DNA of 44,328 bases from Folioceros fuciformis (taxonomy: Eukaryota). Below, in pieces: positions 1-40,097 of this stretch. The stretch's first letter is position 1, and each line of letters opens with the position of its first letter. The stretch is from positions 1 to 44,328 of the forward strand of contig JBNGIO010006370.1 of the NCBI GenBank assembly GCA_049999805.1. The letters run 5' to 3'. The notes below the pieces were generated by a model. That model did not search any database and had not been told where the DNA came from. It saw nothing but the letters and a program-made list of their open reading frames with translations. Made by a program: the position numbers and the translations under genes.

Positions 1-310
1 GAGCTCATGGGAGCGTAGCCCTTAGGTAAGACCGAGCTCATGGGAGCGTAGCCCTTAGGTAAGACCGAGCTCATGGGAGCGTAGCCCTTAGGTAAGACCG
101 AGCTCATGGGAGCGTAGCCCTTAGGTAAGACCGAGCTCATGGGAGCGTAGCCCTTAGGTAAGACCGAGCTCATGGGAGCGTAGCCCTTAGGTAAGACCGA
201 GCTCATGGGAGCGTAGCCCTTAGGTAAGACCGAGCTCATGGGAGCCAAGCCCTAGGTAAGACTAAGCCATGGGTGCCAAGCCCTTAGCTAAGGCCAAACC
301 ATAGGAGCCA
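1..310. repeat. 33-bp tandem minisatellite (7 identical units then degenerate units), runs off the left edge of the window
   Basis: Unit GAGCTCATGGGAGCGTAGCCCTTAGGTAAGACC starts at 1, 34, 67, 100, 133, 166 and 199. Decayed copies continue from 232 to about 310. No spacers. Confidence 0.95.
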
Positions 311-752: not shown

Positions 753-2186
753 TTACAGGCCAGGCCCTGGCCACACGCTACTCCCTCTAGCCAGGCATGA
801 CAGGAGCCGGAGTGGGTTTGACCAGTATAGCTTTTTGGTTAGTGTGCTGTAGATCTGAGGACACTGAAATTTCTTCTCCCACCCTGCTACGGTTTTCTGC
901 AGGACCTCCATGTCCGTGACCTTGCCAATCGCGCTTGTTACAAGACTCAACACATCTTCTGTTTGATGGCTCTTCACGATGGCATCCAACAAGCCTACGA
1001 CAAAGTTCGTGCCATTCTCGCCATCTCTCAAAGATTCATTTCCAGGAGTGGTGGAGTGAACGGTGAGACAGTCTTTCACAAAATAAAGGGGTCGAACTCT
1101 CCCGCTAACAACTTCGCTTCCCTCAACGGCTGACCTCTTGGCTTTGCTGCTGGTGGCAAGGCTGCCGGTGTCTGACCCCACCGGTTTCATTTTTCTGACA
1201 AGACTGCCAGTGCCTCGACAAGCATTTACGACAATTACCTTAGCCTTGTCTGCCAAAAACTTGCATTCAGTGATGGGCTTCACAATATCATGTGCAACAT
1301 AAAGCCGCTCGGTCTCGTCTTTTCCACCCAGGAGAACATACTCTCTTCCCTGCTCATCAGTCCCACCATGGGCATTGATGCAAAACAGAAAACAGTCGTC
1401 GTCTTCCAGAGCAGGGTTGCTGAGAAGACTTTCCAAGCTTGATTGTACTTTCTTAGCATCATCGTTCACGAGAATAACGTTTTCGAAGTCCAAGCTCTTT
1501 ACGATGGCTTCAAGTCGCCCTCTGTCTACCTGTCCACCATCTCTGTTGGCTTCCATGCTGATTATGACTGCAAGACCTCTTCGACGCTTTGCTTTCACCC
1601 TTTCGTTGGGATATGATAGCCCAGGTGAAGGGCCACTCCTTACGTCAAGGGATAGACGCTCCTCCAAAACACACTCAACCTCAGCGCTACTTAAGAGATC
1701 CCTGGCTCCCTCGTACCCAAGGTCTGGACCGGCTTCGGGCGTTCTTGGCCAGCACCATAGATAATCGGAGGAAATCTGCCGTTGATGGGTTTTGTGGTGA
1801 TCGAGAAAGCACTTCTTCAGATGCTGCGTGAGAACCGATTGATTGTGTCGGTAAATACAGAGTGTGAGCTTCTCCACACACGCAATCCTGATGATCCCTT
1901 CTACTAGTTCAACTCCAGGACTACCTTCAGGAGAAGCAGACAACTCTCTCAGTACTGCAACGATATGCTCCTGCACAAACTTGATCGTTTCGTCCTTGCT
2001 CTTGAGTGACCTCGTCAAAATGTCAACATGATCACCAATCTCCCCGGTCTCCTCCCCAATATCCCCACTGCTCTCCAAAAATAAGTCCATACCGTTGTGG
2101 TTAAGTTTGATCAAGTTACGTGCAATGCTATACTGATGAGCCTGCATACAGTAACCTTTATCAACCAACGTGTCTCGTAACTTGAG
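753..2186 (-). CDS. Terminal exon: COR C-terminal part fused in frame to a caspase (peptidase C14A-like) domain at about 822-1613
   Basis: One open frame containing RGLAVII..RDGGQVD, DCFLFCINAHGG (His at 1368-1370), KAKVIVVNACRG (Cys at 1218-1220), DCLTVHSTTPGNESLR..GTNFV and QCPQIYSTLTKKLYW. These match the order and spacing of p20 and p10 motifs in metazoan caspases. Confidence 0.85.
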   Translation of the reverse strand, partial: LKLRDTLVDKGYCMQAHQYSIARNLIKLNHNGMDLFLESSGDIGEETGEIGDHVDILTRSLKSKDETIKFVQEHIVAVLRELSASPEGSPGVELVEGIIRIACVEKLTLCIYRHNQSVLTQHLKKCFLDHHKTHQRQISSDYLWCWPRTPEAGPDLGYEGARDLLSSAEVECVLEERLSLDVRSGPSPGLSYPNERVKAKRRRGLAVIISMEANRDGGQVDRGRLEAIVKSLDFENVILVNDDAKKVQSSLESLLSNPALEDDDCFLFCINAHGGTDEQGREYVLLGGKDETERLYVAHDIVKPITECKFLADKAKVIVVNACRGTGSLVRKMKPVGSDTGSLATSSKAKRSAVEGSEVVSGRVRPLYFVKDCLTVHSTTPGNESLRDGENGTNFVVGLLDAIVKSHQTEDVLSLVTSAIGKVTDMEVLQKTVAGWEKKFQCPQIYSTLTKKLYWSNPLRLLSCLARGSSVWPGPGL

Positions 2187-2278
2187 CTGCAATTCACAAC
2201 CACTGGCCATGTCATGAAACGCTACGCAAGAGAGGATAAATCACCAGCAAAAGAGAGACAGGTCACAAAGTAACGTAC
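2187..2278 (-). other. Predicted 92-nt phase-0 GT-AG intron
   Basis: Minus strand reads CAA|GTACGT ... TTGCAG|CTC. Splicing joins ...PGFFPRFQ to LKLRDTL... in frame, matching the TRN1 motif PGFFPRLQV. Confidence 0.75.
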
Positions 2279-5200
2279 TTGGAATCTTGGAAAGAATCCT
2301 GGACCGAGAAACGTCTTCCTTTCATCTCGGCATTGTACCCGCCTCCCTACGTAGTTGTACTTGGGCACTGTAGTTTTATCACCCGTAGTTGTATCACCCA
2401 GCCATTGCAACTGTCGTTTCCCTTCCAGAGCTTTACCGTCAGCGTCATCCAAGGTGAAGGGAACGAAGAAGACAGGGCTTGGGTTCGCATCAATTTCGTA
2501 GCACAAGTTTAGTCTCTTCATCAACACTACCAGACACACGAATCTCGTCCTCCTCTTCCATGTCTTCGAGAATCTGGGTCAAGGCTTCATTGAGGGACTT
2601 TGGAAGGACAAATCCACCATCTGACAACCTTCTGAGTTTAGACGGTCCAGATCTCGTCTGAATGAAGCTGCCCAAAAACCAATGATCCAGGGTGGATTTA
2701 CCACCACAGCACCTGAATCTTGGAACCAGATGACCCGGCCCGCATTGTGCAGATAGGCAAGAATTGCTTGAAGGCGTTGCTCATCATCTGCCTTAAACAA
2801 CTGTTTACATCGCTCCTTGGTCACAATAGGCTGGGCTGGATTCTGAGATACCCATGCAGTCAAATCAGCGCTGGATCGGTTGCATGCCTCCGGAACCCAA
2901 AACAGAGGAAGTGCAAATAGCTGTTGAAACGATTCGAATAGTTTGTCCAGCAAGGGCTCCACAGTCTGTGTACATCGAGCATCCATGAAGAATAGAGGCG
3001 TTGTCGTGATATGGAGTACCTCCTGAAAAAGCTTGGCCACCTCTGTCACTACTGGTTGCAGCACATCCGGCAGATCGCATGATAATTCAGCCTTCAGATC
3101 CTCCATCCGATCCATATGAGTGACAACCACAAATACCCGAGGCAAACAAGATGCCACGTTGCGAGAATTAGAGTGGATGATCGATCCTAAGCCAAAACTT
3201 GAAGCTGTTTCTGAACCTGTCCTGTATCTCTTCTCTAGAGGGGAGGTGTTCGACAGGCAGCTGGGTATCAAATGGGTTGAATATGAACAAGAAGACACAT
3301 GTCTGGTTGAAGCTCGGGAACAAGTAGTCTTGCAGGGCTCGGTAGTGAGCTGGTCCAGCCAGATCCCAGAGGCTGACTTCCATCTCTTGGTCGTTGCGCA
3401 GCGCCTCGATTTCTATGCCTTTCGCTCCGGTGACAGGACCCACCTGGTTGGGTGCGGCTCCTGTGAGTGGAACATTACCGAACCAGGAACCATTCCAAGC
3501 TAGAGACAGTTGTTCCCACGATGGGACTTGGTTGGGTGATGCGGTTCCTGTATGTGTATGTGTGTGTGGTTGCTGTCTGCGCCGTGCTGTAACCATGGTA
3601 GTGCGGAGAGTGGTCTTCCCTGCGCAAGGTGCACCGCACAGGAAAAGGCGCCCGACCTTGGGCTTCACAGGCTGTTTCCTGTCAAAAAGCAAAGGCCAGT
3701 AGGCCCTATGAGAAACGTGGCGTGCTAAAGTTGCGTTGATGATGGCCCCCATTCCCTTTCCCTCCTGCTCCCACTCCGTACCCCGTAGGCTGATCTTCCG
3801 TAAGGTGGGGTTGACTTGCAGGGACTGCATCAAGTCTCTGAAGAGGTCATCGTCGAGTCCGGAGCAATTCAGAACGTTGAGCTCATTCAATGATGTATTC
3901 TTCCCCAAAGACTGCAGCAACGCTTTCATGAAATAGGGCCAATTGATCGTCCTCAAGGTCAGGATACATAATGATTTGCATTCCAAGAACGACAACGAAA
4001 TTTCACTCGAAGGCTTGTCAATCTCACTGCCACTGTAATCAAACAATTCAAGTTTGGAGAGGGTGGAGTTGTCGCGCAAGGCATCCAGGCCGCGCTCGAC
4101 AGCAACAACGTTGATCATAAGCTCCGTGATACAATCGTTGGTGCGCAACATTCCGGCCAGCGCATCTTCCAGGCCTGGCTCCTCCCAGTTGCGGCTACGC
4201 AATTTCAGCTTGGTGACGCCAGATATGGCGGCATGGGCATCAGCGGGTCGGGTGAAAGCATGTTTGAGCACAGTGCTCATGTGCCCGACTCTGTGACCGA
4301 GGCTGCTCTGTCGGGAACCCGCATTGCGCCAATCCGGATGCAGATCATCCAGATAAAGCTCCCGGAGCGTGGCACAGGACGGAAGAGCGTTTCCAAGACA
4401 CAGGGCTCCCGCCTCATGCATGCCGATCCCACCCAGCCTCAGGGTATTGAGACGGGGAGCGTTGACCAGCATGCGAGCCAGGTGCTGTGCCCCTTCACCA
4501 TCTCCCACTCTGTTCCACCGTAGGCCCAAATCCTGGAGGACAGAATCCTTGTTGAAGCCTTCGACCAGGGCTCCAAGTCCCGCGGCGTCAAGCCCAATGC
4601 TTCGTACTTCCAGCCGTCGCAAGCTGCGACTGGTACCAATAAGGTGGCCCAAGGCCTTGCACCCCGCCAGGCTTCCAAACCCTTTGCACCCTGTCAGATC
4701 AAGATTTTCCAGGGAAGGGTTGGACGCCGAGGCCCCCAAAAGAACCACGCATTCATCCTCCCAGTCGATGCCGATTTCCCACTTCGGAGAGATCCTGAGG
4801 TGGTGGCCGAGTCGGCAGCACTGGCCAATGGCAGTCAGTATCCGCTTGCGCACTCGCTAACGCCTCCCAGGACGAGCATGCGCTTCGAAGTTGTGGTGGC
4901 CATCCAGACACCAAGAGCGCGCCCTGAAGTAATCGCCGTACCGCCTTTTCGTCAAGTCAGGGAGTGCGAACACGGCATCCGTTCCTTCCACTCTTACCAG
5001 CAGCCGTTGCAGCTCAGCTGGCATTGCGCGCCAGTCGTTCTCCTCCTCCACCGCCATGCCCCGCCAGTGGTCGCTTCTTTGAGTAACATTTCGTGCTAAC
5101 GTTGCGTGGATGACGGACGCATTTCCCTCGCAATCCCACCGTGTGCCCTGCATGTTGATCTTGCAAAATCTGGTGTTGGCTTGGACGGAATGCATTAAGC

Positions 5201-6496
5201 CTGCGGAGAGGTCATCGTCGAGTCTACGACACTGCAGGATATTGAGCTCATTCAAAGACGAGTTTTTCTCCAACGACTGCAGCGACGCTTGCATGAAAGA
5301 GCGCCGATGAATCCTCCACAAAGTTAGGATACGCAATGACTTGCATTCCAGGAACGACATCGAAAGTTCACTCAAAAGGCTCCTCAATCTCAGCGTCATT
5401 GTCACAGTCACTGTCACCCTCGTACAATTCAAGTTTGGAGAGGGTGGAGTTGTGGCGCAAGGAGTCCAGGCCGCGCTCGACAGCAATAACGTTGATGGTC
5501 AGCTCCGTGATACAATCGTTGGTGCGCAACATTCCAGCTAGCGCATCTGCCAGGCCTGGCTCCTCCCAGTTGCGGTTACGCAGTCTCAGCGTGGTGACGC
5601 CAGATATGGCAGCATGAGTATCAGCGCGCCGGGTGAAAGCAAGTTTGAGCACAGTGCTCAGCCCATCCGGATGTAGATCGTCCAAATAAAGCTCCCGGAG
5701 CGTGGCACAGGACGGAAGAGCGTTGTTTGCAAGACACAGGGCTCCCGCCTCATCCATGCCGATCCCATCCAGCTTCAGGGTACTGAGACGAGGAGGAGCG
5801 TTGACCAGCATGCGAGCCAGGTGCTGTGCCCCTTCACCATCGCCCACTCTGTTGTTCCCTAGGTCCAAATACTCGAGCGCAGAATCCTTGTCAAAGCCTT
5901 CGACCAGGGCACCAAGTCCCGCGGCATCAAGCTCAATCCCTCGTGCTTCCAGCCTTCGCAAGCTGCGACTGGTACCAATAAGTTGGCCCAGGGCCTTGCA
6001 CCCCGCCAGGCTTCCAAAACCTGCGCATTCTTCCAGATCAAGATGTTCCAGGGAAGGGTTGGATGCCAAGGCCCCAGCAGAACCACGCAGTCATCCTCCC
6101 TATCGATGCCGATTTTCCAGCACGAAGAGATCCTCAGGTGGCCCCGGAGACTGTGGCACCGGCCAATAGCCTTCAGTGCCCACTCGCGCATTCGCCAGTG
6201 CATGGCATGCACCCACCATCTGAAGGAATTGCCGTACTCCTCAGTATAAAGGCTGGGGAGTCCGGACAAGGCATTCCGTCCCAGATCTTCCAGCAGCTGT
6301 TGCAGTTTTGCCGGCATTGCGCTCCTGTCATTCTCCTGCTCTGCCATGCTGTATTCATTCTTCTCGCCCTCCACTCCCGCCATGCTGTGATGTGCTATGC
6401 TGGGCTGGGCTGGGCTGGGCTTCCCAGTACAAGCAAGTATGAAGAATGGCCGGAATGTATGACCTGTTTTGTAGCAGGGGCAAAAGCTCACACACA

Positions 6497-6820
6497 ACAC
6501 ACTCGAGGAGGATTGGGAGACCAAACAAGGCTAGACCAGCGTAGCTTAAGGGATAGCAACCTCACAAGCACACACTCGAGGAGGATTGGGAGACCAAACA
6601 CGGCTAGGCTAGGCCAGCGTAGCTTAAGGGATAGCAGCCTCACAAGCACACACTCGACGAGGATTGGGAGACCGAACAAGGCTAGGCTAGGCTAGGCTAG
6701 CTTATGGGACAGCAACCTCACAAGAAAACACTCGAGGACGATTGGCTGACCAGACAAGGCTAGGCAAGGCGAGGTTAGGCCAGGGGCCATCAACCTCACA
6801 GCACCCACACTCGAGGAGGA
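6497..6820. repeat. ~75-80-bp degenerate tandem repeat (about 4 copies) just upstream of the Roco gene
   Basis: Recurring CACACTCGAGGAGGATTGGGAGACC...GGCTAGG...TAGCTTAAGGGATAGCAACCTCACAAG. Confidence 0.85.
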
Positions 6821-9240: not shown

Positions 9241-9417
9241 GAAATATACTTTCTTCTCTCTTACTCTTGGGTTTGTTATAGCATAGAAATAGGGTTCCTC
9301 TTTTCTCTTTAGGGTTCAAGGTTCTTAGGGTTTTACGGGATTTGAATAGCATTGTCCATTCGTCCATACATAACAAGTGCCTCATGTCCAAGCCCTTTGT
9401 GGTAATACCCAGCAATT

Positions 9418-9726
9418 ACTGACTTCACATTCATCTGGACAAGTTCCATATCATTCCTTGCAACCAGAGCAAGAACACATCGAAAAGTGGTCATTTTGAC
9501 AACTGGTGAGAAAATCTCATCAAAGTCAATACCTTGTTGTTGCTTAAAACCCTTAGCAACTAATCGTGCCTTGTACTTGGATTTGCCATAATGGGGTATG
9601 TCCTTCATCTTATACACCCATATTTGCATGGCAACCTTCTTGCCCCTAGGCAACTGAACCAACTCCCAAGTTTGGTTCTTACGGAGCGAATCCATCTGCG
9701 ACTGCATCGCCTTCTCCCACTTGTCC
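9418..9726 (-). mobile_element. Ty1/copia reverse transcriptase N-terminal fragment
   Basis: KWEKAMQSQMDSLRKNQTWELV...WVYKMK...YKARLVAKGFKQQQGIDFDEIFSPVVK...QMNVKS, truncated there. Confidence 0.93.
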
Positions 9727-12250: not shown

Positions 12251-14600
12251 ATGACGTCCTCAGAAAATGTTATGTTCAATATCGAGAAGTTAGATGGTAC
12301 TAACTTCCCGTTTTGGAAAGAACAAGTGTACAATGTTCTAATGCACAAGAAGCATATCAAGCCCATAAAGTTGCTAGGAGTGAAACCTGTTAGCATGACT
12401 TAGGATGAGTGGCAGGATCTAGATGAGCTTGCTAGGTCTACCATCATGCTAATATTATCGAAGTCGGTCTACTTCAATGTGAAAGACTAGACCACAAGTT
12501 ACGAGCTATGGCAGAAGTTGTGACCTGTGTGAGAAGCAAAGTGCGGCTTCTCAGGTGTACAAGTTGAAACAGCTGGTGGACTTGAAGATGAAGAAAGGGA
12601 CAAGGATGTCCGATCATCTAAATGAGTTCAATATCATTTTCAGCCAGCTCTCATCTCAAGGTATCTTGTTCCTAGATTCTGTGAGAGCTATGTTTATGTT
12701 GGTCACATTACTAGAGAGTTGGGACACCTTTTGTACAGCTCTGAGTAATTCCGCTCCTGCCAGTGGTCTTACCATTGTAAATGTAGAAGGTAGCCTGTTA
12801 ACAGAGGAGGTGAACAGGAAGAAATTTGGAACCTTCGAAAGGTTCCAATGCCCTCATGGTGAGAGGAAGGTCCACTTCAAAGGGGAAGTACAAGGAGCGA
12901 AGTCTTTCCCGTAGCAAATCTCGTAGTTGTAACAATGTTGAGTGTTACCATTGTCACAAAAAGGGTCACATCAAAAGGGACTGTGAGAAGTTCAAGAAGG
13001 ACAAAGGAAAGAGAAGAAGTAGAGCGACAACAAGGCAAGTCCGAGTATTAAGCATGATGAGGCGAATTATGTTGATGATGGAGATGTTTTTATCTCTTCT
13101 TCCTTTGATTATGCACAACTAACAGCCGTGGGGAGTCACTTATTCTCTAATTGGATAATTGGCTCTGGAGCATCTTTCCATGTTACTCCGCATAGGAAGT
13201 GGTTTAGCACCTATGATGCTACTCGGAAATGATGTGTTCGGCTTGGAAATAACTACGCATGCGAGATTGCAGGCGTTGGTGATGTGCAGCTAAAGTTTAA
13301 CAACGGATCTTCATTCATTTTGAAGGATGTTAGGCATGTTCCGAAGTTGACAAAAAGCATGATTATCGCAGGGTAGTTGGATGATGCTGGCTACCACTGT
13401 TGGTTTGGGGATCATTCTTGGAAGATCTCCAAAGGTTCTCTTGTGTTAGCTTGTGGATCGAAGTGTGGCACTTTGTACTCACTTCAGGTAACCACTGTCA
13501 AGGATCATGTGATTTGTGTAATGGAATAGCCAAGTGTTTCCTTGTGGCATTGTCGATTAGGACATATGTCTCAAAAAGGAATGAAGATCTTATCTCGTTT
13601 TGGTTACGTCCCTGCTTTTGACTTCTCCGATTTCTCCGTGTGTGAGCACTGTTTATATGGGAAACAGACGAAGTCACCACATAGAGCAAGAAGTAAACAC
13701 AAAAGTAAACCTCTTGAATTGGTTCACAGTGACGTTTGTGGACCTATGCCCATTGTATCATTAGGCGGTGCATCCTATTTTGTCACTTTTATAGATGATT
13801 TCTCACGCAAGGTGTGGGTTTATCCTTTGAGGAAAAAGGATGATGTTCTGATAGTGTTTCAGAAATTTGTCACTCTTGTGGAGAATCAGTCTGGCCTCCG
13901 ACTAAAGTGTCTAAGGACAGACAATGGGGGAGAGTATGTTTCGAAGGCTTTCCAGTCATTTTGTGATTCCAAGGGAATCCAGAGAGAATTGATTGCCCCG
14001 TATACTCCTCCCCAGAATGGTGTGGCTGAACGGATGAATAGGACCATCCAGGAGAGGATGTGTGGTTTGTTGTCAAACTCTGGATTGCCTAATGGATTTT
14101 GGGCAGAAGCAGTGGTTACTGCAGTGCATCTTATTAACAAATCTCCTAATAAGGTTGTGGATGAGTAGGTTCTCGAGGAGATGTGGTCTGGAAAGAAGCC
14201 GTCATACAAGCATCTGCGAGTGTTTGGCTGCGAGGCATGTTACCATGTTCTGAAGGAGTTTCGGGACAAATTGGCTCCCAAGTCAAGAAAATGTATTTTT
14301 CTTGGCTATGGTGAATTTGGTGAGATGGGATACCGTCTATGGGATCCAGAGGCCAAGAAGGTTGTTTGCAGCAATGACATGTTCTTCAATGAGACCAAGA
14401 TGCACAAGAAGCCTACTCCAACTGTGGAGGTGGGACGGGTGGTCTTCTAAGAGGATGGACTTGACCGTCCCGCGCAGGTTGAACGTTATGATGTGCAGGA
14501 ACCAGTTCCTCCACTGGTAGAAGAGGAGAGAGTGCAACCAGCTCCGGTCGAGGTGCCTGTGCTTCATAGGTCAAGATTCACATCCTCCTGACAGGTATGT
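12251..14600 (+). mobile_element. Decayed Ty1/copia (Tnt1-like) gag-protease-integrase region
   Basis: gag start IEKLDGTNFPFWK; zinc knuckle CYHCHKKGHIKRDC; protease WIIGSGASFH (catalytic D replaced by G); WHCRLGH..CEHC; integrase LVHSDVCGP, RTDNGGEY, PQNGVAERMNRTI; HLRVFGC, GYRLWDP. Several stops and frameshifts. Confidence 0.95.
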
Positions 14601-15394: not shown

Positions 15395-18300
15395 ATGATG
15401 GATACGATATGGCAACAGGACCCGTTGTGGATCCACCAAATTGGTCTGTGTCCAGGGATACTAGGAGGACGTCCTGCTCACCTCACATTAGGGAGTCAAC
15501 GCCCTGCAACCAACCAATCCTCCAGGAGCAGCGGTTGCACGAGCTCTGGACTTCCACTTCCGGGAAAATGGATGGGCGGGGATAGGGTTTCCAATGATGG
15601 TTGTCGCCAGGAGCAGGACCAGTTGTGGAAACATTTGATTCCGGACCCTACTATGTTGTTAGACACCAGACAAGAAACGAAACGCTCTCGTTCGCCTTAC
15701 CGTATGGGTAGGGGATCCGGCGAGGTCCTGCGCTCAAACAACAAGTTCAAGCCAGCTTGGGATGATGAGCAGCTCGTTTCCTTGGACATGCAGATCGGTC
15801 AGGGTGCCTCTCCTTCCGCGTCGAGGTCTCCGAATAAGCTTGAACCTGGGAGGGGTGCAGGATCTGAAATGGGCGTCGTAACGGCTGGGACAGTGAGCAA
15901 GTTGTGTCAGCAGGGGGAGCTCTCTGACGCCGTTGTAGCCCTGGAATCTCTGGTGCAGACAGACTCTGCTATATCTCGGTCTCTGTTTTACACCGTGCTA
16001 AAACTGTGTGCAGCTAAGAAAGATATGGCCGTGGGGCGACGAGTACATCAACTCATCGTCAAACTTGGGTGCGAGTCGAATGCATATCTGGGGAACCATA
16101 TCTTGCGCATGTATGCATCTGGAGGTAGGCTGCAGGAGGCCATGGATGTATTCACCCGGGTGGGCAAACCAGATGCCTTCATGTGGTATTCCATAATCTC
16201 TGCATATGCTAAACATGGGAAGCCCGAAGGGGCCATACAGCTATACCACGCGATGCGGAGGTCAGGGGTGAAGGCGAATGCTCACATCTTTGTAGCTGCC
16301 CTTCAAGCTTGTGCCTTTGCAGTCGACTTGGAATCTGGCAGAGAAGTGCACTGCGATGTGTTGCACAGTGGCATTCCTACCAACCTGTTTGTTGGCAACT
16401 GCCTGGTGGACATGTATGCAAAATGTGGTGAACTGCAGAATGCACGCCAGGTTTTTGAAAGCATGGGCGAAAAGGATGTGGTGACGTGGACGACGCTGAT
16501 TGCTGGATACACACAGGGAGGGCTCAGCCAAGAGGCTCTCGTTGTGTATGAACGAATGGATCGGGAAGGACTAATTGTTGCTAACCATGTTACTTTTGCT
16601 TGCCTTCTGAAGGCCTGTGCAAGCGTTGGTGCTTTGCAGAAAGGCAGGCAGCTGCACTCACAAATTGTAGAACGAGGACTGCTCGATAACGTACTAGTGG
16701 GCACCTGTCTGGTGGACATGTATGCAAAATGTGGCGAACTGGAAGATGCACGCAGTGTTTTCGACAGCATGGCCACAAAAACTATGGTGACATGGACGGC
16801 CCTGCTGGCTGGGTATGCGCAGCAAGGCTTCGGACATGCCGCACTTGGTGTGTATGGACTTATGGAGGAGGAGGGCCTTATTTTGGCTGACCACATTACT
16901 TTTGCTTGCCTTCTGAAGGCCTGTGCAAGTGTTGGCGCCTTACAGACGGGTAGGCATCTTCACTCGCAGATTGTGGAACGAGGACAGCTAGATAACGTGC
17001 TGGTGGGCAACTGCCTGGTGGACATGTATGCAAAATGTGGCGAATTGGAAGATGCACGAGATGTTTTTGACAGCTTGGCCACAAAGGATGTGGTAACATG
17101 GACCGCCCTGATATCTGGGTATGCCCAGCAGGGCCTTGGACATGAGGCACTTGTTCTGCACGGACGAATGGAACAGGAGGGGCTGATTTTGGCTAACCAT
17201 GTTACTTTTGCTTGCCTGCTGAACGCTTGTGCAAGCACGTGTGCCTTACAACAGGGCAAAAAGCTGCACTCTCAGGTTGTCGAAAGAGGACTGCTGGACA
17301 ACGTAGTGTTGGGCAACTGCCTGGTGGACATGTATTCAAAATGTGGTGAACTGGAAGAAGCACGCCAGGTGTTTGACGGCCTGGCAGAAAAGGATGTGGT
17401 GACATGGAATGCTCTGATATCTGGGTATGCACAGCAAGGCCTCGGCCAAGAGGCACTTGTTCTGTTTGGACAAATGGAGCAGGACGGGCTGATTTTGGCT
17501 AACCAGGTTACTTTTGCTTGCCTTCTGAAGGTCTGTGCAAGCTCTGGTTCCTTACAGAGGGGCAGGCAGCTGCACTCACAGATTGTTGAAAGAGGACTGC
17601 TGGATGGCGATGTAGCGTTGGGCAACTGCCTGGTGGATATGTATTCAAAATGTGGAGAACTAGAGGAAGCACGCCAGGTTTTTGACCGCTTGACCACAAA
17701 AGATGTGGTGACATGGACCGCCCTGATATCTGGTTACGGTAATTGTGATGAGGGTCACAAGGCATTAGCTTGTTTCGAGGATATGTTAGTTACTGGTATT
17801 CAGCCTAATGATACAACTTTTACTTGCCTTTTGGTAGCATGTAGTCATGGGGGACTAGTCCGGGAGGGTCGCAAGTACTTTGATTCCATGGCTGAACAGC
17901 ATGGCATCAAACCTACTATTGAGCATTACACTTGTATGATTGATCTTCTTGGGCGTGCTGGGCATTTAGATGAGGCAGAGAAGATGCTTTCCTTATGCGA
18001 GGCCCGAACTAATGTTGTGGGATTGACGTCTTTGTTGAATGCTTGCAAAAATCACGGGGATCTAGAGAGGGCGTTGTGGTGTTTTGAAAGCATTGTTAGG
18101 CTGGATCCTCAGTGGGCGTCTGCCTACGTGCTCATGGCCAATGCCTATGCAGATGCGGGTAGGTGGGCTGACGTGGACAGGATTGAGACACAGAGAATAG
18201 GCGCAGGAGCTAACAAGAAACCTGCAGTGGCGACCGTTGAAGTGAATAAGCAGGTGCATAGATTTCTGGTGGGAGACAGAAGCGAGGATATTGCGCTGAA

Positions 18301-18619
18301 GGTAGAGAGCACGAATGCACGTGTGAAGGAGGAAGGAGGTCATGTGCCTCACACAAAGTTGGTGTTAAAGCCAATGTGTGAGAAGGAAAAGGAAGACGCG
18401 CTTTGTGGGCATGCTGAGAAGCTAGCTCTGGCGTTTGGTCTGTTGAACACTCCGAGTGGGACACCTCTGGTGGTAACGAAGAATCTACGGATGTGCAGTG
18501 ACTGCCACAGTTCCACGGAGATCATGTCTAGGCTTGAACACAGGGACATTGTTGTGCGGGATGGGTACCGTGTACATCGGTTTGCAAACGGTTGTTGCAG
18601 TTGTAAAGATCGACCATGA
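15395..18619 (+). CDS. PLS-class PPR protein with E1/E2 and DYW:KP domain (ends ...CKDRP); candidate organellar U-to-C RNA editing factor
   Basis: 1074-aa intronless ORF with P-L-S triplets at a 306-bp period. KKPAVATVEV, HAEKLA, CSDCH, C-terminal DRP. Confidence 0.95.
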   Translation: MMDTIWQQDPLWIHQIGLCPGILGGRPAHLTLGSQRPATNQSSRSSGCTSSGLPLPGKWMGGDRVSNDGCRQEQDQLWKHLIPDPTMLLDTRQETKRSRSPYRMGRGSGEVLRSNNKFKPAWDDEQLVSLDMQIGQGASPSASRSPNKLEPGRGAGSEMGVVTAGTVSKLCQQGELSDAVVALESLVQTDSAISRSLFYTVLKLCAAKKDMAVGRRVHQLIVKLGCESNAYLGNHILRMYASGGRLQEAMDVFTRVGKPDAFMWYSIISAYAKHGKPEGAIQLYHAMRRSGVKANAHIFVAALQACAFAVDLESGREVHCDVLHSGIPTNLFVGNCLVDMYAKCGELQNARQVFESMGEKDVVTWTTLIAGYTQGGLSQEALVVYERMDREGLIVANHVTFACLLKACASVGALQKGRQLHSQIVERGLLDNVLVGTCLVDMYAKCGELEDARSVFDSMATKTMVTWTALLAGYAQQGFGHAALGVYGLMEEEGLILADHITFACLLKACASVGALQTGRHLHSQIVERGQLDNVLVGNCLVDMYAKCGELEDARDVFDSLATKDVVTWTALISGYAQQGLGHEALVLHGRMEQEGLILANHVTFACLLNACASTCALQQGKKLHSQVVERGLLDNVVLGNCLVDMYSKCGELEEARQVFDGLAEKDVVTWNALISGYAQQGLGQEALVLFGQMEQDGLILANQVTFACLLKVCASSGSLQRGRQLHSQIVERGLLDGDVALGNCLVDMYSKCGELEEARQVFDRLTTKDVVTWTALISGYGNCDEGHKALACFEDMLVTGIQPNDTTFTCLLVACSHGGLVREGRKYFDSMAEQHGIKPTIEHYTCMIDLLGRAGHLDEAEKMLSLCEARTNVVGLTSLLNACKNHGDLERALWCFESIVRLDPQWASAYVLMANAYADAGRWADVDRIETQRIGAGANKKPAVATVEVNKQVHRFLVGDRSEDIALKVESTNARVKEEGGHVPHTKLVLKPMCEKEKEDALCGHAEKLALAFGLLNTPSGTPLVVTKNLRMCSDCHSSTEIMSRLEHRDIVVRDGYRVHRFANGCCSCKDRP

Positions 18620-20860: not shown

Positions 20861-23464
20861 TCATGGTCGACCCTTACAACTGCAACAACCAGCTGCAAAT
20901 CGATGCACACGGTAGCCATCCCTGACAACAATGTCTCTTTGCTCAAGCCTGGACATGATCTCCGTGGAGCTGTGGCAATCACTGCACATGCGTAGATTCT
21001 TTGTCACCACCAGAGGTGTCCCACTCGGAGTGTTCAATAGACCGTATGCCAGAGCTAGCTTCTCAGCATGCCCGCAAAGCACATCTTCCTTCTCCTTCTC
21101 GGACAGTGGCTTCAACACCAACTTGGTGTGAGACGTATGGCCTCCTTCCTCTTTCAGACGTGCATTCGTGGTCTCTGCCTTCAGCGCAATGTCATCTCTT
21201 CTTTCTCCCACCGTAAATGTATGCACCTCATTCTTCACCTCAATGCTCGCGACTGCAGGTTTCTTGTTTGCTCCTGCTACCATTCTGTCTGTTTCAATCC
21301 TGTCCACGTCAGTCCACCTGCCTGCATCTGCATAGGCATTGGCCATTAGCACATATGCGGACGCCTGCTGAGGGTCAAGGCCAACCAGGCTTTCAAAACA
21401 CCGCAGTGCCCTTTCTATGTCCCCATGACTTCTGCAGGAATTCAACAAAGAGGTCAAGGCCACAACATTAGTTCGGGCCTCGCATGACAATAGCATTCCC
21501 TCTGCCTCATCTAAATGGCCTGCGCGCCCGAGAAGATCAATCATGCAAGTGTGATGCTCGATCGTGGGCGTGATGCCATGTTGTTCAGCCATGGAATCAA
21601 AGTGCTTGCGACCCGCCTGGACTAGTCCCTCATGACTGCATGCTACTAGAAGGCAGGTAAAACTAGCATGATCAGGCTGAATACCAGCACCTAACATCTC
21701 CTCAAAGCAAGCTAGGGCTCTGTGACCATCATCACATGCACCATACCCAGCTATCAGGGCATTCCATGTTATCACATCCTTAGTGGCCAAGCTGTCAAAA
21801 ACTTGGCGTGCATCTTCCAGTTCACCACATTTTGCATACATGTCCACCAGGAAGTTGCCCAACACAACGTTATCCAGCAGTCCTCGTTCGACTATCTGTG
21901 AGTGCAGCTGCCTGCCCTTCTGCAAGGCACCAGTGCACGCACAGGCCTTCAGAAGGCAAGCAAAAGTCACGTGGTTAGCCAAAGTCAGGCCCTCCTGCTC
22001 CATTCGTCCATACAGAACAAGTGCCTCATGTCCAAGCCCTTTGTGGGAATACCCAGCGATCAGTGCTGTCCATGTCACCACGTCTTTACAGACCAGGCTT
22101 TCAAAAACCTGGCGTGCATCGTCCAGTTCCCCCCATTTGGCATACATGTCCACCAGGCAGGTGCCCACCATTATGTCATTCAACAGTCCCCTTTCCACAA
22201 TCTGTGAGTGCAGCTGCCTGCCCTCCTGTAAGGCACCAGTGTTTGCACAGGCCTTCAGAAGGCAAGCAAAAGTAGCACGATTAGCCACAATCAGACCCTC
22301 CTGCTCCATTCGTTCGTACACAACAAGCGCCTCTCGGGTGAGACCTCGCTGTGCATACCCATCAATCAGCGCCGTCCATGTCACCACATCCTTTTCCGCC
22401 ATGCTTTCAAAAACCTGGCGCGCACCTTTCAGCTCACCACATTTTGCATACATGTCCACGAGGGAGTTGCCAACAAACAAGTTGGTAGGAATGCCACTGT
22501 GCAACACATCCCAGTGCACTTTTCTGCCGGATTCTAAGTCAGCGGCAAATGCACAAGCCTGAAGGGCAGCTACAAAGACGTGAGCATTCGCCCTCACTCC
22601 TGACCTTCGCATCCCATGGTACAGTCGTATGGCTTCTTCAGGCTTACCATGTTTAGCGTAAGCAGATATCATGGAGAACCACATGAAGACATCTGGTTGA
22701 GCCACCCTGGTGAACACATCCATGGCCGCCTGCAGCCTACCTCCAGATGCATACATGCGCAAGATGTGGTTCCCCAAGTATGCATTCGACTCGTACCCAA
22801 GTTTGACAGTGAGGTCATGAACTCGTCTCCCCACAACCAAATCTTTCTTGGCTGCACACAGTTTCAGCACTGTGTAAAACAGAGACCGAGAGATGGCAGA
22901 GTCTGTCTGCACCAGAGATTCCAGGGCTACGACGGCCTCAGAGAGCTTCCCTTGCTGACATAACTTGCTCACGGTTCCAGATGTTACGACGCCCATTTCA
23001 GTTCCTGCACTCCTTTCAGATTGAGGCTGACCCATAGAGCTGGACGTGGAAGGAGAGGCACCGTAATTAATCTGCATGTCCATGGAAACGAGCTGCGCAT
23101 CAACCCAAGCTGGCTTAAACATCCCGTTTAACCACAGAACCTCGCCAGACCCCTTACGCCGGAAGTCAGGCGCACGAGAGCTCGTCTTATCTCGTCTGTT
23201 GTCCCACCACATGGCAGGGTCCATAAAAAACTGTTGCCACAAGTGCTCCTGCTCCTGGCGACGACCATCGCTAGAAACTCCATCTCCACTCACAAATTTT
23301 GTCTCAAGTGGAAATGCTGGGCTCCTCACACTGCTGCACCTGGAGGCTTTGTTTCCAAGGGGTTGACTTCCTAAACCTTGGTGAGCGGAAGATCCTCCTA
23401 AAATTCTTGTACGCACACCAATTTGTTGGCTCAAAAACGGGTTCGGTTGCCATACGGTCACCAT
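20861..23464 (-). CDS. PLS-class PPR-DYW:KP protein (ends ...CKGRP) with an intact N-terminal OSB/PDF-like motif
   Basis: 867-aa ORF. LWQQFFMDPAMWWDNRRDK...PDFRRKGSGEVLWL...PAWV, then PLS repeats, KKPAVASIEV, HAEKLA, CSDCH, GRP. Confidence 0.95.
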   Translation of the reverse strand: MVTVWQPNPFLSQQIGVRTRILGGSSAHQGLGSQPLGNKASRCSSVRSPAFPLETKFVSGDGVSSDGRRQEQEHLWQQFFMDPAMWWDNRRDKTSSRAPDFRRKGSGEVLWLNGMFKPAWVDAQLVSMDMQINYGASPSTSSSMGQPQSERSAGTEMGVVTSGTVSKLCQQGKLSEAVVALESLVQTDSAISRSLFYTVLKLCAAKKDLVVGRRVHDLTVKLGYESNAYLGNHILRMYASGGRLQAAMDVFTRVAQPDVFMWFSMISAYAKHGKPEEAIRLYHGMRRSGVRANAHVFVAALQACAFAADLESGRKVHWDVLHSGIPTNLFVGNSLVDMYAKCGELKGARQVFESMAEKDVVTWTALIDGYAQRGLTREALVVYERMEQEGLIVANRATFACLLKACANTGALQEGRQLHSQIVERGLLNDIMVGTCLVDMYAKWGELDDARQVFESLVCKDVVTWTALIAGYSHKGLGHEALVLYGRMEQEGLTLANHVTFACLLKACACTGALQKGRQLHSQIVERGLLDNVVLGNFLVDMYAKCGELEDARQVFDSLATKDVITWNALIAGYGACDDGHRALACFEEMLGAGIQPDHASFTCLLVACSHEGLVQAGRKHFDSMAEQHGITPTIEHHTCMIDLLGRAGHLDEAEGMLLSCEARTNVVALTSLLNSCRSHGDIERALRCFESLVGLDPQQASAYVLMANAYADAGRWTDVDRIETDRMVAGANKKPAVASIEVKNEVHTFTVGERRDDIALKAETTNARLKEEGGHTSHTKLVLKPLSEKEKEDVLCGHAEKLALAYGLLNTPSGTPLVVTKNLRMCSDCHSSTEIMSRLEQRDIVVRDGYRVHRFAAGCCSCKGRP

Positions 23465-24039: not shown

Positions 24040-25818
24040 ATGCCTGCGTCAAGGCAATTGTGGCGGGCGGTGAGCCGGGGGAAGAGCCTCCGTCACACAT
24101 CTGCTCTGGATGAGTTCCATCCCTGGAGAGTGGTGGCGGCACAGGCTTGTGCTGCCATGGGTGGAGATGGTCGCAGGGAGACGGGCTTATGGAGGAGCAG
24201 GAGCCTCGCATCTTCTGCGCCTTGGGTGTCCTCCTTTTCCACCTGCCCCCCTCTAGTGTCTGCTAGATTTTGCTCTGGGGGTGCTGCCCTGCAAGAGAGT
24301 CCCGACAGTGTGGCATCTTCACCTTCCAAGGTGAAATTGTTCATCGGCGGCGAATTCATCGACTCCCACTCCTCAGAGTGGATCCATGTGGTCAATCCTG
24401 CTACCCAGGAGAGCGTGTCTCAAGCTCCCCTCACCACTTCTGCGGAGTTTGATGCGGCCGTGGCAGCTGCCAAGATGGCTTACCCTAAGTGGAGGGACAC
24501 TCCTGTTACCTCCCGGCAGAGAGTGATGCTCAAGTTCCAGGAGTTGATCCGCCGGGACATGGAGAAGCTGGCAAGGATTGTGACTCTGGAGCAGGGGAAG
24601 ACTCTTGCGGATGCCAGAGGAGACGTGTTCCGAGGGCTGGAAGTGGTAGAGCAGGCGGCAGCCATGGCCAATTTTCAGATGGGGGAGTTTGTGGAGAACG
24701 TGTCTAGCGGAATAGACACGTACAGCATCAGGCAGCCGCTTGGAGTTTGTGCAGGGATCTGCCCTTTCAATTTTCCGGCTATGATTCCGCTGTGGATGTT
24801 CCCCTTTGCAGTCACCTGCGGGAACACATTTATCCTGAAGCCTTCCGAGAAGGATCCAGGGGCTGCCATGCTGCTGGCGGAGCTGGTATCGGAGGCCGGG
24901 CTGCCACCTGGGGTTCTGAATATTGTGCACGGCACTCACGGAGTTGTGGATGCCATTTGCGACCACCCGGACATCAAGGCCATCTCCTTCGTGGGCTCGG
25001 ATGTGGCCGGGATGCACATCTACCAGCGGGCATCTGCCAAGGGGAAGCGTGTGCAGTGCAATATGGGCGCCAAAAACCATGCTGTCATCATGCCGGATGC
25101 TAGCCCGGAGACCACGGTGAATGCCCTTGTAGGAGCTGCGTTCGGCGCCGCTGGGCAGAGGTGCATGGCCATCTCTACTGCCGTGTTCGTAGGTGATTCC
25201 AAGCCCTGGGAAGACAAGCTGAAGGAGAAGGCCAGGTTGCTGAAGGTGACTGCCGGGATGGAGGATGGTGCAGACCTTGGGCCGGTGATCAGCAAGCAAG
25301 CCAAGGAGCGAATCCTGTCCCTCATCGAGAGCGGGGAGAAGCAGGGTGCTAGGGTCGTTCTGGATGGCCGCAACCTTCAAGTGGCTGGCTATGAGAAAGG
25401 CAACTTTATAGGTCCCACCATCCTCGCCGATGTGAAAACTGACATGGCTTGCTATCAGGAGGAGATTTTTGGACCAGTTCTGGTGTGTCTGCAGGTTAGC
25501 AGTCTAGAGGACGCCATCCAGCTTATCAATAACAACAGGTACGGCAATGGCACTGCTATCTTCACCAACTCGGGGGTGGACGCAAGAACCTTTCAGCATG
25601 AGATTGAGGTGGGGCAGGTGGGCATCAACGTGCCCATCCCCGTACCGTTGCCCTTCTTCTCCTTCACGGGATCAAGAGCGTCTTTCGCAGGGGACCTCAA
25701 CTTCTATGGGAAGGCCGGAGTTAACTTTTACACACAGATCAAGACTGTTACGTCCCAATGGAAACAGAAAGAGGGACGAGGAGTAGCGATGGCATTTCCC
25801 ACATCCCAGAAAGTGTGA
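24040..25818 (+). CDS. ALDH6B2: Mitochondrial methylmalonate-semialdehyde dehydrogenase (acylating), ALDH family 6
   Basis: 592-aa [43 protein letters not shown] (catalytic Cys), [16 protein letters not shown]. Arg/Ser-rich N-terminal extension. Confidence 0.95.
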
Positions 25819-27314: not shown

Positions 27315-28999
27315 TACTATCCACGGTACCCATCTCGTCCAGCAATGTCTCTCTTTTTAACCTTGGACATGATCTCGGTCGAACTGTGGCAGTCGATGCA
27401 CAGGCGCAGATTCTTGGTTACAGCAAGAGGGTGTGTGCCATTCGAAGTGTTCAAGAGGCCAAACGCTAGAGCTAGCTTCTCAGCAGATAAAAGTAAAAGT
27501 AGTATCGTCAGGCTGAATACCAGAAACTAACATCTCTTCAAGACAAGCTACAGCCTTATGACCTTCACCAAAAGCACCACACCCAACTATCAGAGCACGT
27601 TCCACGTCACGACAGTCTTTGTAGCCCAGCTTTTAAAAACCTAGCATGCAGCTTCAAGTTTGGCACTTTTTGCATACGTCCACCAAGCAGGTTCCCAACA
27701 CGATATTATCCAGCAGTCCTCTTTCAACAATCTGCGACCGAAGCTCTCGGCCCATCTGTAAGGCACCACTGCTTGCACAGGCCTTCAGAAGGCGAGTAAA
27801 AGTAACATGGTTAGCAAAAACCAGGCCGTCTTGCTGCATTTATCTATACAGAGCAAGAACCTCTTGGCCGAGCCATTGCTGTCTGCGCATACCCAGCGAG
27901 CTGTGCATTCCATGTCACCACATCCTTTGAAGCCAAGCTATCAAAAACCCGGCATGCATCTCCGAGCTCACCACATCTTGCGTTTAAGTCCACCAGGCAG
28001 TTTCCAACAAACAGGTCAGGAGGAATGCCACTCTGCAACACATCACAGGTGCACTTTTCTGCCAGACTCTAAGTCGGCGTCAAATGCACAAGCTTGAAGT
28101 GCAGCTACAAAGACGTGGGCATCTGCCTCCACTTCTGACCTCCGCATATCATGGTACGGTCGTACGGCCTCTTCAGGTTTCCCATGCTTGGTGAATGCGG
28201 AGATTATGAAAAACAACATGAATGCGTCTGGTTTGCCGACCCTGGTGAACACAGCCATGGCCTCCTGCAGCCTCCCTCCATATGCATACGTGAGCAGAAC
28301 ATGGTTCTCCAAGTCTGCATTCCACTCTTACCCTAGTTTGACACAAAGGTCATGCACTCGTCGCGCCACAGGCAGATCCTTCTTAGCAGCACCCAGTTTC
28401 AGGACAGTATAGTACAGAGAGTGAGAAACAGCAGAGTCTGTATCCGCCAAAGCCTGCAAGGCTCCAACAGCATCAAGAAGCATCCCCTGCTGACATACAT
28501 CTGCACGGTTCCCCACCCCTCACTCATCCTGCGTGCCTCCCGGGTCCAGTGCTACCAGGAGAGCTCCACTTGGAAGAGGGTGCACCATGACCCAACTGGC
28601 TATCCAAAGAAACGAGGTGCTCATCGACCCAAGCAGGCTTCAGCATGCAGTTTAACCATAGGACCTCGCTAGAACCCTTACGCCGGAAGTCAGGCGAAAG
28701 GGAGCTCTTCTTAACTCGCCTGTTGTCCCACCACAAGGAAGGGTCCAGAAAGAATTGTTCCCACGACTGCTCCGGCTCCTGCTCCTGGCGCACCGTCGCT
28801 GAAACCCACGTTGGCGCCCACACATTTCCCCGGAAGTGGTGGTCCTCGACTCCGCACACTGTTGCAACTGGAGGCTTGGTTGTTTGCGGGGGGTTGACTC
28901 CCTGAGCTGAGCTGGACCTGTTCGTGCATGAGCGGGAGCTCCTCGTGGAATCCCTGTGCACACTACCCACAACAGGTCCAATTCAAACGTAGTGGCCAT
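27315..28999 (-). pseudogene. PPR-DYW:KP pseudogene with frameshifts and an internal deletion
   Basis: ATG at 28999 (MATTFE..). PDF-like WWDNRRVKKSSLSPDFRRKGSSEVLWL. Fragmented PLS ORFs. GIQPDDTTFT jumps directly to AEKLA...NLRLCIDCHSSTEIMS. Confidence 0.9.
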
Positions 29000-29518
29000 C
29001 CTTCAGAGCCTGCGGTCGGTGAAAGAGGCTAGTAGCAAACCAAGGCAGATGGCCAGGTATTGGGCATTGCCACACAACTCTGAAGAAGAATGCAAACGGT
29101 TCATTGTTACATATCGACCAAACACGTCTCGAGACTTTGGGCCGTGAGCCCAGCTTCGTCGCAGGCTGCGACATCGAGCAACCTAGCCTCGTCTAGAGCT
29201 AAAAGGGACAAGCATAGTCAAGTCCTCGTCGAAGGGCACTTGGTAGTCAGTGGGAAGTTGTTTATCTCACGCAGTCTCAAGGCCGAACGCCGGCCAACGA
29301 GACCGAGAGAGTGTGTGTAGCCGATCAAGAACGACAGCTCGCAATACATGGAGGACGTGTGGTTTCCTACGTATGTGCAAGGGGGAGGCCTGCATCGAGA
29401 GCTTACGGCGTTTGGCCTGATCGGTAGTCTGTCTGTGATTGGCTAAAGAATTAGTGCAGATTTTGCCATGTATAGGTAGTTGGTGTCCGCATCATCTTCT
29501 AAGAGCAGTGTGGGTACC

Positions 29519-39449: not shown

Positions 39450-40060
39450 GGAAGACTAAGAAGAAAGTGGTTGTGGGGCGACGAGACGACTTCATGACCT
39501 TACAGTTAAACTTGGGTACGAGTGGAACGCATAGAGTACTTGGGGAACCACAGCTTGCGCATATGCATGTGGAGGAGGTACGGTGCAGGGGGCCATGGAT
39601 GTGTTCACCAGGGTGGACCAACGGAATGTGTTCATGTGGTTTTCCGTAATCTCTGCTCCTTCTAAGCACGGGAAACCTAATGAATGCCATACAAGTGTAC
39701 TGTGAGATGCGGAGGTCGGGAGCGAAAGCTGATGCTCATGTCGTCGTAGCTGCCCTTCAAGCAAGCTTGTGCGTTGGCCGCAAACTTGGAATCTGGCACT
39801 AAAGTCCAATTGTGATCTGTTGCGTAGTGGCCTTCCTACTTACTACCTTTGTTGTTTGTTGGCACCTGTCTGGCGGACATGTATGCAAACTATGGTGAAT
39901 CGGAAGATGCACGCCAGGTTTTTGAAAGCCTGGCCAGAAAGGATGTGGTGACGTGTGGAATGCACCGCTATCTGTATATGCACAGCAAGCCAAGGGCTCC
40001 GCCAAGAGGCGCTTGCTTTGTATGGACAGATGGAGAAAGAGGGCCTCATTTTGGCTCAAA
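39450..40060 (+). pseudogene. Decayed PPR fragment of the same family
   Basis: Frameshifted remnants: VVGRR..HDLTVKLGYE, AMDVFTRV, LFVGTCLADMYANYGESEDARQVFESLARKDVVT, QEALALYGQMEKEGLILA. Truncated next to the foldback element. Confidence 0.85.
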
Positions 40061-40097
40061 ACTTCGTCTTGAGCGAAGTTTTTTTTTCCTTTTCCTC

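Follow-up and report, generated by a model that had tools for sequence, protein, structure and literature searches.

The stretch of DNA examined here (hereafter the window) comprises positions 1 to 44,328 of contig JBNGIO010006370.1 from the hornwort Folioceros fuciformis (assembly GCA_049999805.1). Near its left end, on the minus strand, lies a locus of the Roco type, in which leucine-rich repeats (LRRs), a Roc GTPase and the COR-A and COR-B regions follow one another, and in which the last exon carries, in a single frame, COR-B, a linker and a caspase-type protease domain. We consider it likely that this exon has stayed intact at the end of a gene that is otherwise decayed, and that the gene belongs to a bryophyte family joining a Roco protein to a caspase-type C14 domain, the latter standing in place of the C-terminal extension found in ordinary hornwort proteins resembling TORNADO1 (TRN1). 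The features of the locus are given below; residue numbers refer to the open reading frame (ORF) 753..2210.

753..2186, minus strand: terminal exon (COR-B, linker and caspase-type domain in one frame), stop codon at 753-755; boundary set from the sequence and from tblastn with relatives P0006 and P0018
2187..2278, minus strand: intron of 92 nt, GT..AG, phase 0, from the sequence and the flanking frames; the tblastn high-scoring segment pairs (HSPs) of P0006 end at 2273 and restart at 2192
825..1580, minus strand: Peptidase_C14 caspase-type domain, aa 211-462, from Pfam, alignments to caspase-7 and caspase-6, a predicted model and its structural alignment
1542-1544, minus strand: Arg223, aligned to an S1-pocket arginine
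1368-1370, minus strand: His281, catalytic, aligned to caspases
1218-1220, minus strand: Cys331, catalytic, aligned to caspases
1062..1211, minus strand: loop (about aa 334-383) joining the large- and small-subunit halves, with VGSD at aa 344-347; variable in the family alignment, predicted local distance difference test (pLDDT) below 50 at model residues 144-149 and 151-169
1026-1028, minus strand: Arg395, aligned to an S1-pocket arginine
1641..2186, minus strand: COR-B-like region, aa 9 to about 190, from HMMER matches to Roco proteins over query residues 6-187
2279..3181, minus strand: Roc G4 motif (THMD, 3110-3130) and COR-A, from three-frame translation, alignment of P0018 residues 844-1150 and Pfam COR-A (E 1.6e-4)
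3183..4853, minus strand: LRR region and first part of Roc, from an ORF, alignment of P0018 residues 328-844 and Pfam Roc (E 8.5e-5)
3351-3374, minus strand: Roc DLAG (G3), by motif coordinates
3606-3635, minus strand: Roc P-loop GAPCAGKT, by motif coordinates

A first-pass annotation, made from the letters of this DNA alone, had described one uninterrupted ORF running from COR sequence into a caspase-like domain. The minus-strand ORF 753..2210 is indeed open over 485 codons, and the six motifs quoted at that time were all found in it: RGLAVII (aa 211-217), R223-x-G-x-x-x-D229, INAHGG (aa 278-283, including His281), KAKVIVVNACRG (including Cys331), STTPGNESLR (including Arg395) followed by GTNFV, and QCPQIYSTLTKKLYW (aa 449-463). 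The sequence ARDLLS (aa 169-174) lies N-terminal to the caspase-type domain and shares its frame. The end coordinate given then, 2186, is a real exon start, because a phase-0 GT..AG intron adjoins it at 2187-2278, matching P0006, a transcript of the hornwort Nothoceros aenigmaticus. Removal of this intron joins ...GPGFFPRFQ to LKLRD..., again in agreement with P0006. The ATG at 2210 falls within the intron, and an AATAAG lies about 30 nt past the stop codon of the exon.

The Roco part of the locus was delimited with homologues. When the ORF 753..2210 protein was searched with HMMER against 1.84 billion representatives, 442 proteins came out at E ≤ 0.001, among which aa 6-187 match the COR regions of Roco proteins. 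P0006 is 46% identical over COR-B (with a sub-threshold Pfam COR-B match), P0017 (1288 aa; Pfam Roc and COR-A matches) aligns to the COR-B part of the query, and P0018 (1629 aa) has Pfam Roc, COR-A and LRR_6 matches. Moreover, residues 328-1318 of P0018 align to the window from 4730 down to 1662 on one strand (tblastn, E 7e-90), and this collinearity gives the order LRR, Roc, COR-A, COR-B, caspase-type domain. The tblastn alignment is unbroken over COR-A and COR-B, for residues 844-1318 of P0018 and residues 37-293 of P0006. The Roc of the window aligns with those of P0017 and P0018, and its G1, G3 and G4 motifs were found. The sequence data thus support that the caspase-type domain shares one exon with the COR-B of an LRR-Roc-COR gene, and the COR-to-caspase fusion proposed earlier stands.

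The N-terminal region, the RNI-type LRRs, Roc and COR of the locus align with P0006, P0012, P0017 and P0018, as would be the case for a Roco protein of the TORNADO1/LOPPED1 type, which we take to consist of LRR-Roc-COR and a plant-specific C-terminal region. The label TORNADO1-like is to be taken as putative. In contrast to that type, the extension of about 300 residues that follows COR-B in P0006 and P0012 has no counterpart in the window, where the caspase-type domain occupies the position.

The nature of this domain was examined by sequence and by structure. The C-terminal region matched Pfam Peptidase_C14 over the full length of the profile (all 233 positions, E 2e-24; 87 bits, the cut-off being 21.4), as the first-pass annotation would have it, and an NCBIfam scan of the ORF 753..2210 protein returned no match. 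When the single sequence was searched against the PDB, the best 60 of 169 matches were all caspases, headed by caspase-7 (2.5e-7), and with a profile of 14 family sequences the best 60 of 242 matches were all of the caspase-6/3/7 type (2e-37 to 2e-35); metacaspases and MALT1 were absent from the best 60 in both searches. An AlphaFold2 model of aa 195-485, built from a 63-row alignment of family and animal caspase sequences, reached a pLDDT of 85.8 and a predicted template modelling score of 0.83, being uncertain only at the loop between the halves and at the tail. Among the Foldseek matches listed for this model, every row was a caspase.

VIA, an exhaustive structural alignment of the model against 48,161 chains, placed three caspase chains first (Z 29.6, 29.2 and 28.9; root-mean-square deviation 1.5-2.0; 24-26% identity), the best being a caspase-3 chain, and the remaining full-length caspases and c-FLIP followed at Z 23-26. 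MALT1 scored 22.4 and 19.7. Metacaspases, at 10-14% identity, all scored lower than every full-length caspase chain: Arabidopsis MC4 19.3 (12% identity), MC9 18.4, yeast Yca1 16.2 and Trypanosoma brucei MCA2 13.3. A metacaspase identity was rejected on these scores. Plant metacaspases (C14B; MC4 and MC9) and MALT1 share with the domain the clan CD caspase-hemoglobinase fold and the His/Cys dyad; they differ from it by a much lower similarity (the Arabidopsis enzymes at Z 18-19 and 10-12% identity, MALT1 at Z 20-22). Given the sequence matches, the modelled fold, the ranking within the clan and the pocket residues described below, the assignment of the domain as caspase-type and not metacaspase-type is supported, and the earlier call to that effect agrees with the caspases at Z 29-30, the family profile at about 1e-37 to caspase-6/3/7 and the retention of both S1 arginines.

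His281 (NAHGG) and Cys331 (NACRG) align with the catalytic residues of caspase-7 and caspase-6. In the caspase-7 alignment, Arg223 falls on the arginine of RNGTD and Arg395 on that of SWR; in caspases, these two arginines (179 and 341 in caspase-1 numbering) hold the P1 aspartate. In the 63-row alignment of the family with animal caspases, R223, H281, C331, R395 and Q449 occupy columns with a conservation of 90% or more. Two substitutions accompany these residues: the pocket glutamine of QACRG is Asn329 here, asparagine being also the family consensus (FINACRG), and the tryptophan of SWR is replaced by leucine. Judged from its sequence, the domain plausibly has Asp specificity.

It is quite unlikely, in our estimation, that the domain works as an Arg/Lys-specific metacaspase or paracaspase, or else as a non-catalytic pseudo-protease. 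The asparagine in the pocket would fit such a role, as would the fold common to MALT1 and the metacaspases (Z 13-22), and P0002, another COR-B-caspase member, has glycine in the column of the catalytic cysteine. However, R223 and R395 are kept in columns shared with animal caspases, the His/Cys dyad of the window copy is intact, and caspases are the nearer structures (24-26% identity and Z 29-30, against 10-14% and Z 13-19). The loop at 1062..1211 may, for its part, serve as a cleavable linker between the subunits. We also noted that the nearest large Protein Atlas clusters to a Marchantia domain of this kind are animal caspase clusters (0.90-0.91), which is a lead only.

Compared with metazoan caspases (MEROPS C14A; caspase-3/6/7, -8, -9 and CED-3), the domain has the full-length Peptidase_C14 match, the HG and ACRG motifs, both P1-binding arginines, the C-terminal Q..P....L.KK.Y/F motif, a disordered loop between the halves, structural scores of Z 29-30 and, possibly, the pairing through the last strand that is predicted for it. 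It differs in its low identity (23-33%), in the Gln-to-Asn and Trp-to-Leu changes, in its plant host and in what precedes it, which is the COR-B of a Roco protein and no CARD, DED or pyrin prodomain.

Since such a domain is surprising in a plant, the reality of the junction deserves a closer examination. The stretch is borne by three sequencing runs (X1, X2 and X3), all as contigs, X1 and X2 belonging to two different studies. Exact contigs cover 1202-1880 in X1 and X2, and X2 and X3 add others at 740-1225 and 700-1225, respectively. The junction between COR-B and the caspase-type domain is therefore real DNA, being covered by exact contigs of two studies, which also answers the concern about contamination raised with the first-pass annotation.

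That the caspase sequence came from an animal contaminant or a chimeric misassembly is extremely improbable. It might be suggested by the identity of the relatives, for past the bryophytes the nearest named ones are animal caspases (ten of the 18 that carry names, among 30 proteins looked up). Against this, COR-B, whose best match is a hornwort protein, and the caspase-type domain share a single exon across a junction seen in both studies, any animal caspase is only 23-33% identical, and the family also occurs on 28-Mb chromosome-scale Marchantia contigs and in the Nothoceros transcriptome.

Upstream of the terminal exon, the copy in the window has decayed. Its breaks, and a duplicate that precedes it, are as follows.

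2528-2540 (approximately), minus strand: frameshift in the COR-A stretch, from three-frame translation and exact contigs
2674-2678, minus strand: frameshift in a T5 run in the COR-A stretch, from three-frame translation and exact contigs
3186 (approximately), minus strand: frameshift at the end of the LRR/Roc part, between G3 and G4 of the GTPase, from an exact X1 contig at 3122-3313
4857..4859, minus strand: in-frame TAG in the N-terminal region of the caspase-linked copy, from translation of 4791-5060 against the N-terminus of the upstream copy
5077..6195, minus strand: incomplete tandem copy of the N-terminal and LRR part, by blastn 79% identical to 3706-4857

Homology changes frame three times 5' of the intron, in ungapped alignments (tblastn and three-frame translation), and LRR-Roc-COR does not form one open reading frame here. 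The shifts at 2674-2678 and ~2528-2540 were confirmed by exact contigs over 2441-2771 in X2 and X3. At the third shift, related contigs of higher depth in X1, X2 and X3 have 1 nt fewer at 3186 and 3 nt fewer at 3181, and would be in frame there. The duplicate at 5077..6195 shifts frame as well (ORFs 5859-6524, 5368-6069 and 4857-5486). Introns in place of the frameshifts were considered and rejected, because the alignments with homologues run on without a gap at each break.

With three frameshifts and an in-frame TAG upstream of its last exon, the window copy is unable to make a full single-chain receptor, and the earlier proposal of such a receptor fails for this copy. We regard it as very improbable that the locus nevertheless encodes an intact, working LRR-Roc-COR-caspase receptor whose breaks are assembly errors or unusual small introns. 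Roco homology does span the whole of 1662-4730 on one strand, and the shift near 3186 was seen in X1 only, perhaps the sample of the assembly itself. However, the other two shifts are repeated by X2, from another study, and by X3, no break behaves as an intron, the TAG at 4857-4859 is in frame, and the sole listed start for the 3168-4853 frame is a GTG.

The open terminal frame could also be read as a gene of its own, in which COR-B and the caspase-type domain are expressed alone from the 485 codons, for example from the ATG at 2210, as a free protease, a decoy or a regulator of intact paralogues. The frame is open and keeps all catalytic and pocket residues while the upstream part is broken, the AATAAG lies just past the stop, and P0001 (450 aa) and P0002 (427 aa) likewise start inside COR-B. 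On the other hand, the ATG at 2210 lies inside an intron marked by homology, P0001 and P0002 may be mere last exons because they come from short contigs of 4-9 kb, no RNA run is among those bearing the locus, and a young pseudogene would keep an open frame anyway. A shorter product of this kind thus appears unlikely.

Judging from contig depth, the locus may have numerous relatives within the same runs: 151 of 284 X1 contigs are only 90-95% alike (depth not being copy number), which suggests that the Roco-caspase locus belongs to a multi-copy family. The window copy is probably a young pseudogene within this family, with its last exon still intact. At 3451-3453, beside a His/Thr-rich insert in Roc, the related contigs of X1, X2 and X3 have 34 extra letters, a length polymorphism between paralogues.

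We then considered the family beyond the window. Among the 30 relatives looked up, 18 carry organism names, eight of them bryophyte, ten animal and none bacterial. The bryophyte ones are from Nothoceros (P0006, P0010, P0013 and P0029), Marchantia polymorpha (P0007 and P0020), M. paleacea (P0016) and Riccia fluitans (P0015). P0001 matches over query residues 33-464, from COR-B into the caspase-type domain, as a single stretch. Moreover, the Nothoceros transcript P0159 has one HSP running from COR-B into the p20 half (E 4e-30), and the fusion is therefore transcribed in another hornwort.

A quick maximum-likelihood tree was built from 90 rows, namely the window and 89 of 150 listed matches, leaving out 52 COR-only matches (without a caspase-profile match) and nine that covered fewer than 180 profile positions. 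The window falls within a clade of 14 rows (Shimodaira-Hasegawa-like approximate likelihood ratio test, 96) that holds Nothoceros, Marchantia, Riccia and nine further sequences, apart from the named animal caspases. As to origin, the bryophyte clade could be old in its own right or could stem from animals by transfer.

In liverworts the partner of the caspase-type domain is an alpha/beta-hydrolase (Abhydrolase_6, DUF676), N-terminal to it. These proteins (M. polymorpha PTQ31690.1, of the Mp6g00900 type; M. paleacea KAG6554914.1; R. fluitans KAL2622267.1) are 38-39% identical to the window domain and share its clade; they differ in having this partner instead of Roc-COR, and they are auto-annotated only. 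In Marchantia, one or more alpha/beta-hydrolase (SERAC1-like) domains precede the caspase-type domain. Liverwort Hyd-NLRs are also headed by alpha/beta-hydrolase domains, according to the part of PMC11218826 that deals with them.

Two other members are of note. P0002 has a glycine in the column of the catalytic cysteine (VISGHG) and keeps the histidine; by its sequence it may be a pseudo-protease inside the family. P0085, outside the window, is another single-chain LRR-caspase fusion.

Other searches for relatives returned little. Word-based protein searches with the ORF 753..2210 protein at near lengths gave no match (a weak negative), and with the family alignment they gave only five, including two mollusc caspases and one ENA fragment, which is weak as well. 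A pattern-limited scan of 185,579 prokaryotic species genomes with KPK..F..AC gave 17 pattern matches and 0 relatives. A metagenome scan with P0004 gave no match, and one with P0005 gave a single contig (L001, 2.1 kb), whose caspase fragment (FINACQG) resembles animal forms and is uninformative.

Several observations weigh against the reading of the locus as the last exon of a decayed Roco-caspase gene, or against parts of it. The Pfam matches to Roc, COR-A and COR-B are all under the gathering cut-offs. P0001, P0002 and P0159 are fragments that begin inside COR-B, and no intact full-length Roco-caspase protein was recovered, the word-based searches for longer relatives being empty. The runs that bear the stretch are all contigs with no RNA run listed, the "RNA?" label of X2 being a guess, and the shift near 3186, as said, is confirmed in one run that is possibly the window's own assembly sample. 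The tree, having no metacaspase or bacterial outgroup, shows the clade and not its origin. Finally, Asp specificity is not assured, because the pocket glutamine is replaced by asparagine in the window copy and in most of the family.

Taken with these points, the decayed Roco-caspase gene remains the likely reading. The family is real and surprising for plants, and the window copy is a plant variant of a bacterial architecture. The portion of the work of Kaur, Burroughs, Iyer and Aravind (2021, eLife, PMC8195603) that concerns bacterial LRR-AP-GTPase(Roc)-COR proteins describes fast-evolving LRRs and at least 24 alternative C-terminal domains, including a caspase, and reads these proteins as counter-invader conflict systems. 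The domain order found here is therefore of a known kind, and an architecture without any precedent can no longer be claimed. As far as that account goes, the order LRR, Roc-type GTPase, COR and C-terminal caspase-superfamily peptidase is shared, whereas the bacterial systems have prokaryotic hosts and the window is plant-like, with pentatricopeptide repeat (PPR)-DYW genes, its caspase being nearest to animal forms.

A further comparison may be drawn with inflammasomes and apoptosomes, that is, NLRC4/NLRP1 with caspase-1, Apaf-1 with caspase-9, and the fungal and bacterial NLR-like proteins with protease domains. By analogy, the concept would be similar, in that a repeat sensor and an oligomerising NTPase switch would activate a caspase-family protease by proximity. 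The parts would differ, a Roc GTPase and a COR dimeriser standing here in place of a STAND ATPase, and the protease being attached and not recruited through a CARD or PYD.

Dimerisation is a feature of both parts: Roco proteins pair via COR, and pairing activates caspases. In intact members of the family, the LRRs may sense a ligand or a perturbation, upon which the Roc-COR switch would alter its dimer state and bring two protease domains together. These would pair via the last beta-strand, as caspases do, and the paired enzyme would turn active, probably cutting after an acidic residue, and so might set off an immune or cell-death response. The window copy itself, with its three frameshifts and in-frame stop, is probably incapable of this.

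In the homodimer prediction the caspase-type domain reached 0.73 and the best of three controls 0.00, although a memory of solved caspase dimers is possible. The predicted interface is symmetric and involves model residues 256-266 (the last strand) and 225-238, with a contact agreement of at least 65% and a partner pLDDT of at least 75 in the dimer runs. As to calibration, the dimer mark was reached by 21 of 30 solved same-chain pairs and by none of 23 solved single chains (by 17 of 29 among eukaryotes, and by one of seven without an older solved relative). Because caspase dimers have already been solved, the score is a measure of likeness and not of binding.

A bolder reading, which we put forward only tentatively and which may well prove wrong, is that hornworts and liverworts have genuine acid-specific caspases and not metacaspases. 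These, either sister to the animal enzymes or acquired from them by an ancient transfer, would be the executioner parts built into intracellular receptors (of the Roco type in hornworts, hydrolase-linked in liverworts) and would be activated by dimerisation driven by Roc-COR. If true, this would amount to a plant "one-chain inflammasome", and caspase-based immune cell death would not be an animal invention.

In full-text literature searches on plants, neither caspase-type proteins of bryophytes nor fusions of Roco and caspase parts turned up in any paper, although the source data of PMC8195603 might list eukaryotic cases; this is in line with the earlier statement that no description of such an architecture in plants was known. 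Caspase-type domains are not, however, unique to the window gene among land plants: the Marchantia and Riccia proteins are already public, auto-named "Caspase family p20 domain-containing protein", and a literature search found no paper on these hydrolase-caspases. Reviews and primary papers as recent as 2026 hold that caspases are missing from plants, which have metacaspases in their place (PMC12521494, PMC13272413, bioRxiv 10.1101/2023.04.28.538660 and PMC10565124). Reticulomyxa is named in PMC10565124 as a non-animal case of caspase-type proteins. The abstract of PMC11378527 proposes an immune-receptor role for brown-algal LRR-ROCO genes, and its main text does not contain the word "caspase".

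A bryophyte family of caspase-type proteins with Asp-binding arginines would qualify the statement that plants lack caspases. Its domains are wired to an LRR-GTPase switch in hornworts and to an alpha/beta-hydrolase in liverworts, and Marchantia would be a tractable model for caspase-like proteolysis in plant immunity or cell death. The family would also bear on when caspases arose, and plants would join the bacteria, with their conflict systems, and the animals, with their inflammasomes, as holders of a "sensor-switch-protease" design.

The rest of the window holds the following features.

3-248, minus strand: 33-nt tandem repeat at the window edge, about seven units translating as PMSSVLPKGYA
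9333-9707, minus strand: Ty1/copia-type fragment
13542-14168, plus strand: Ty1/copia-type fragment
15395-18619, plus strand: large intronless PPR gene, ending ...CSCK(G/D)RP
20861-23464, minus strand: large intronless PPR gene, ending ...CSCK(G/D)RP
24040-25818, plus strand: intronless aldehyde dehydrogenase of 592 aa with an N-terminal extension (Pfam Aldedh, E 2.9e-142)
28524-28970, minus strand: short N-terminal PPR-like fragment
29480-32212, plus strand: large intronless PPR gene, ending ...CSCK(G/D)RP
33323-35641, plus strand: large intronless PPR gene, ending ...CSCK(G/D)RP
36548-38809, minus strand: large intronless PPR gene, ending ...CSCK(G/D)RP
40654-41499, plus strand: ORF with a GNAT acetyltransferase domain (E 2.4e-10), in the low-GC end

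The five PPR genes lie within 24 kb. Two of them were scanned, and in both a DYW_deaminase domain (E ~1e-32) accompanies PPR repeats and an E motif. By sequence, the five genes have the appearance of RNA-editing factors arranged in tandem, as is typical where organelle editing in a plant is heavy. The aldehyde dehydrogenase at 24040-25818 resembles, we presume, methylmalonate-semialdehyde dehydrogenase. The stretch that separates the Roco locus from the PPR genes holds the two Ty1/copia-type fragments (RVT_2; gag_pre-integrase and rve). In the final 4 kb (40001-44000), where the GNAT ORF lies, the GC content is 0.36-0.38, against about 0.5 elsewhere.

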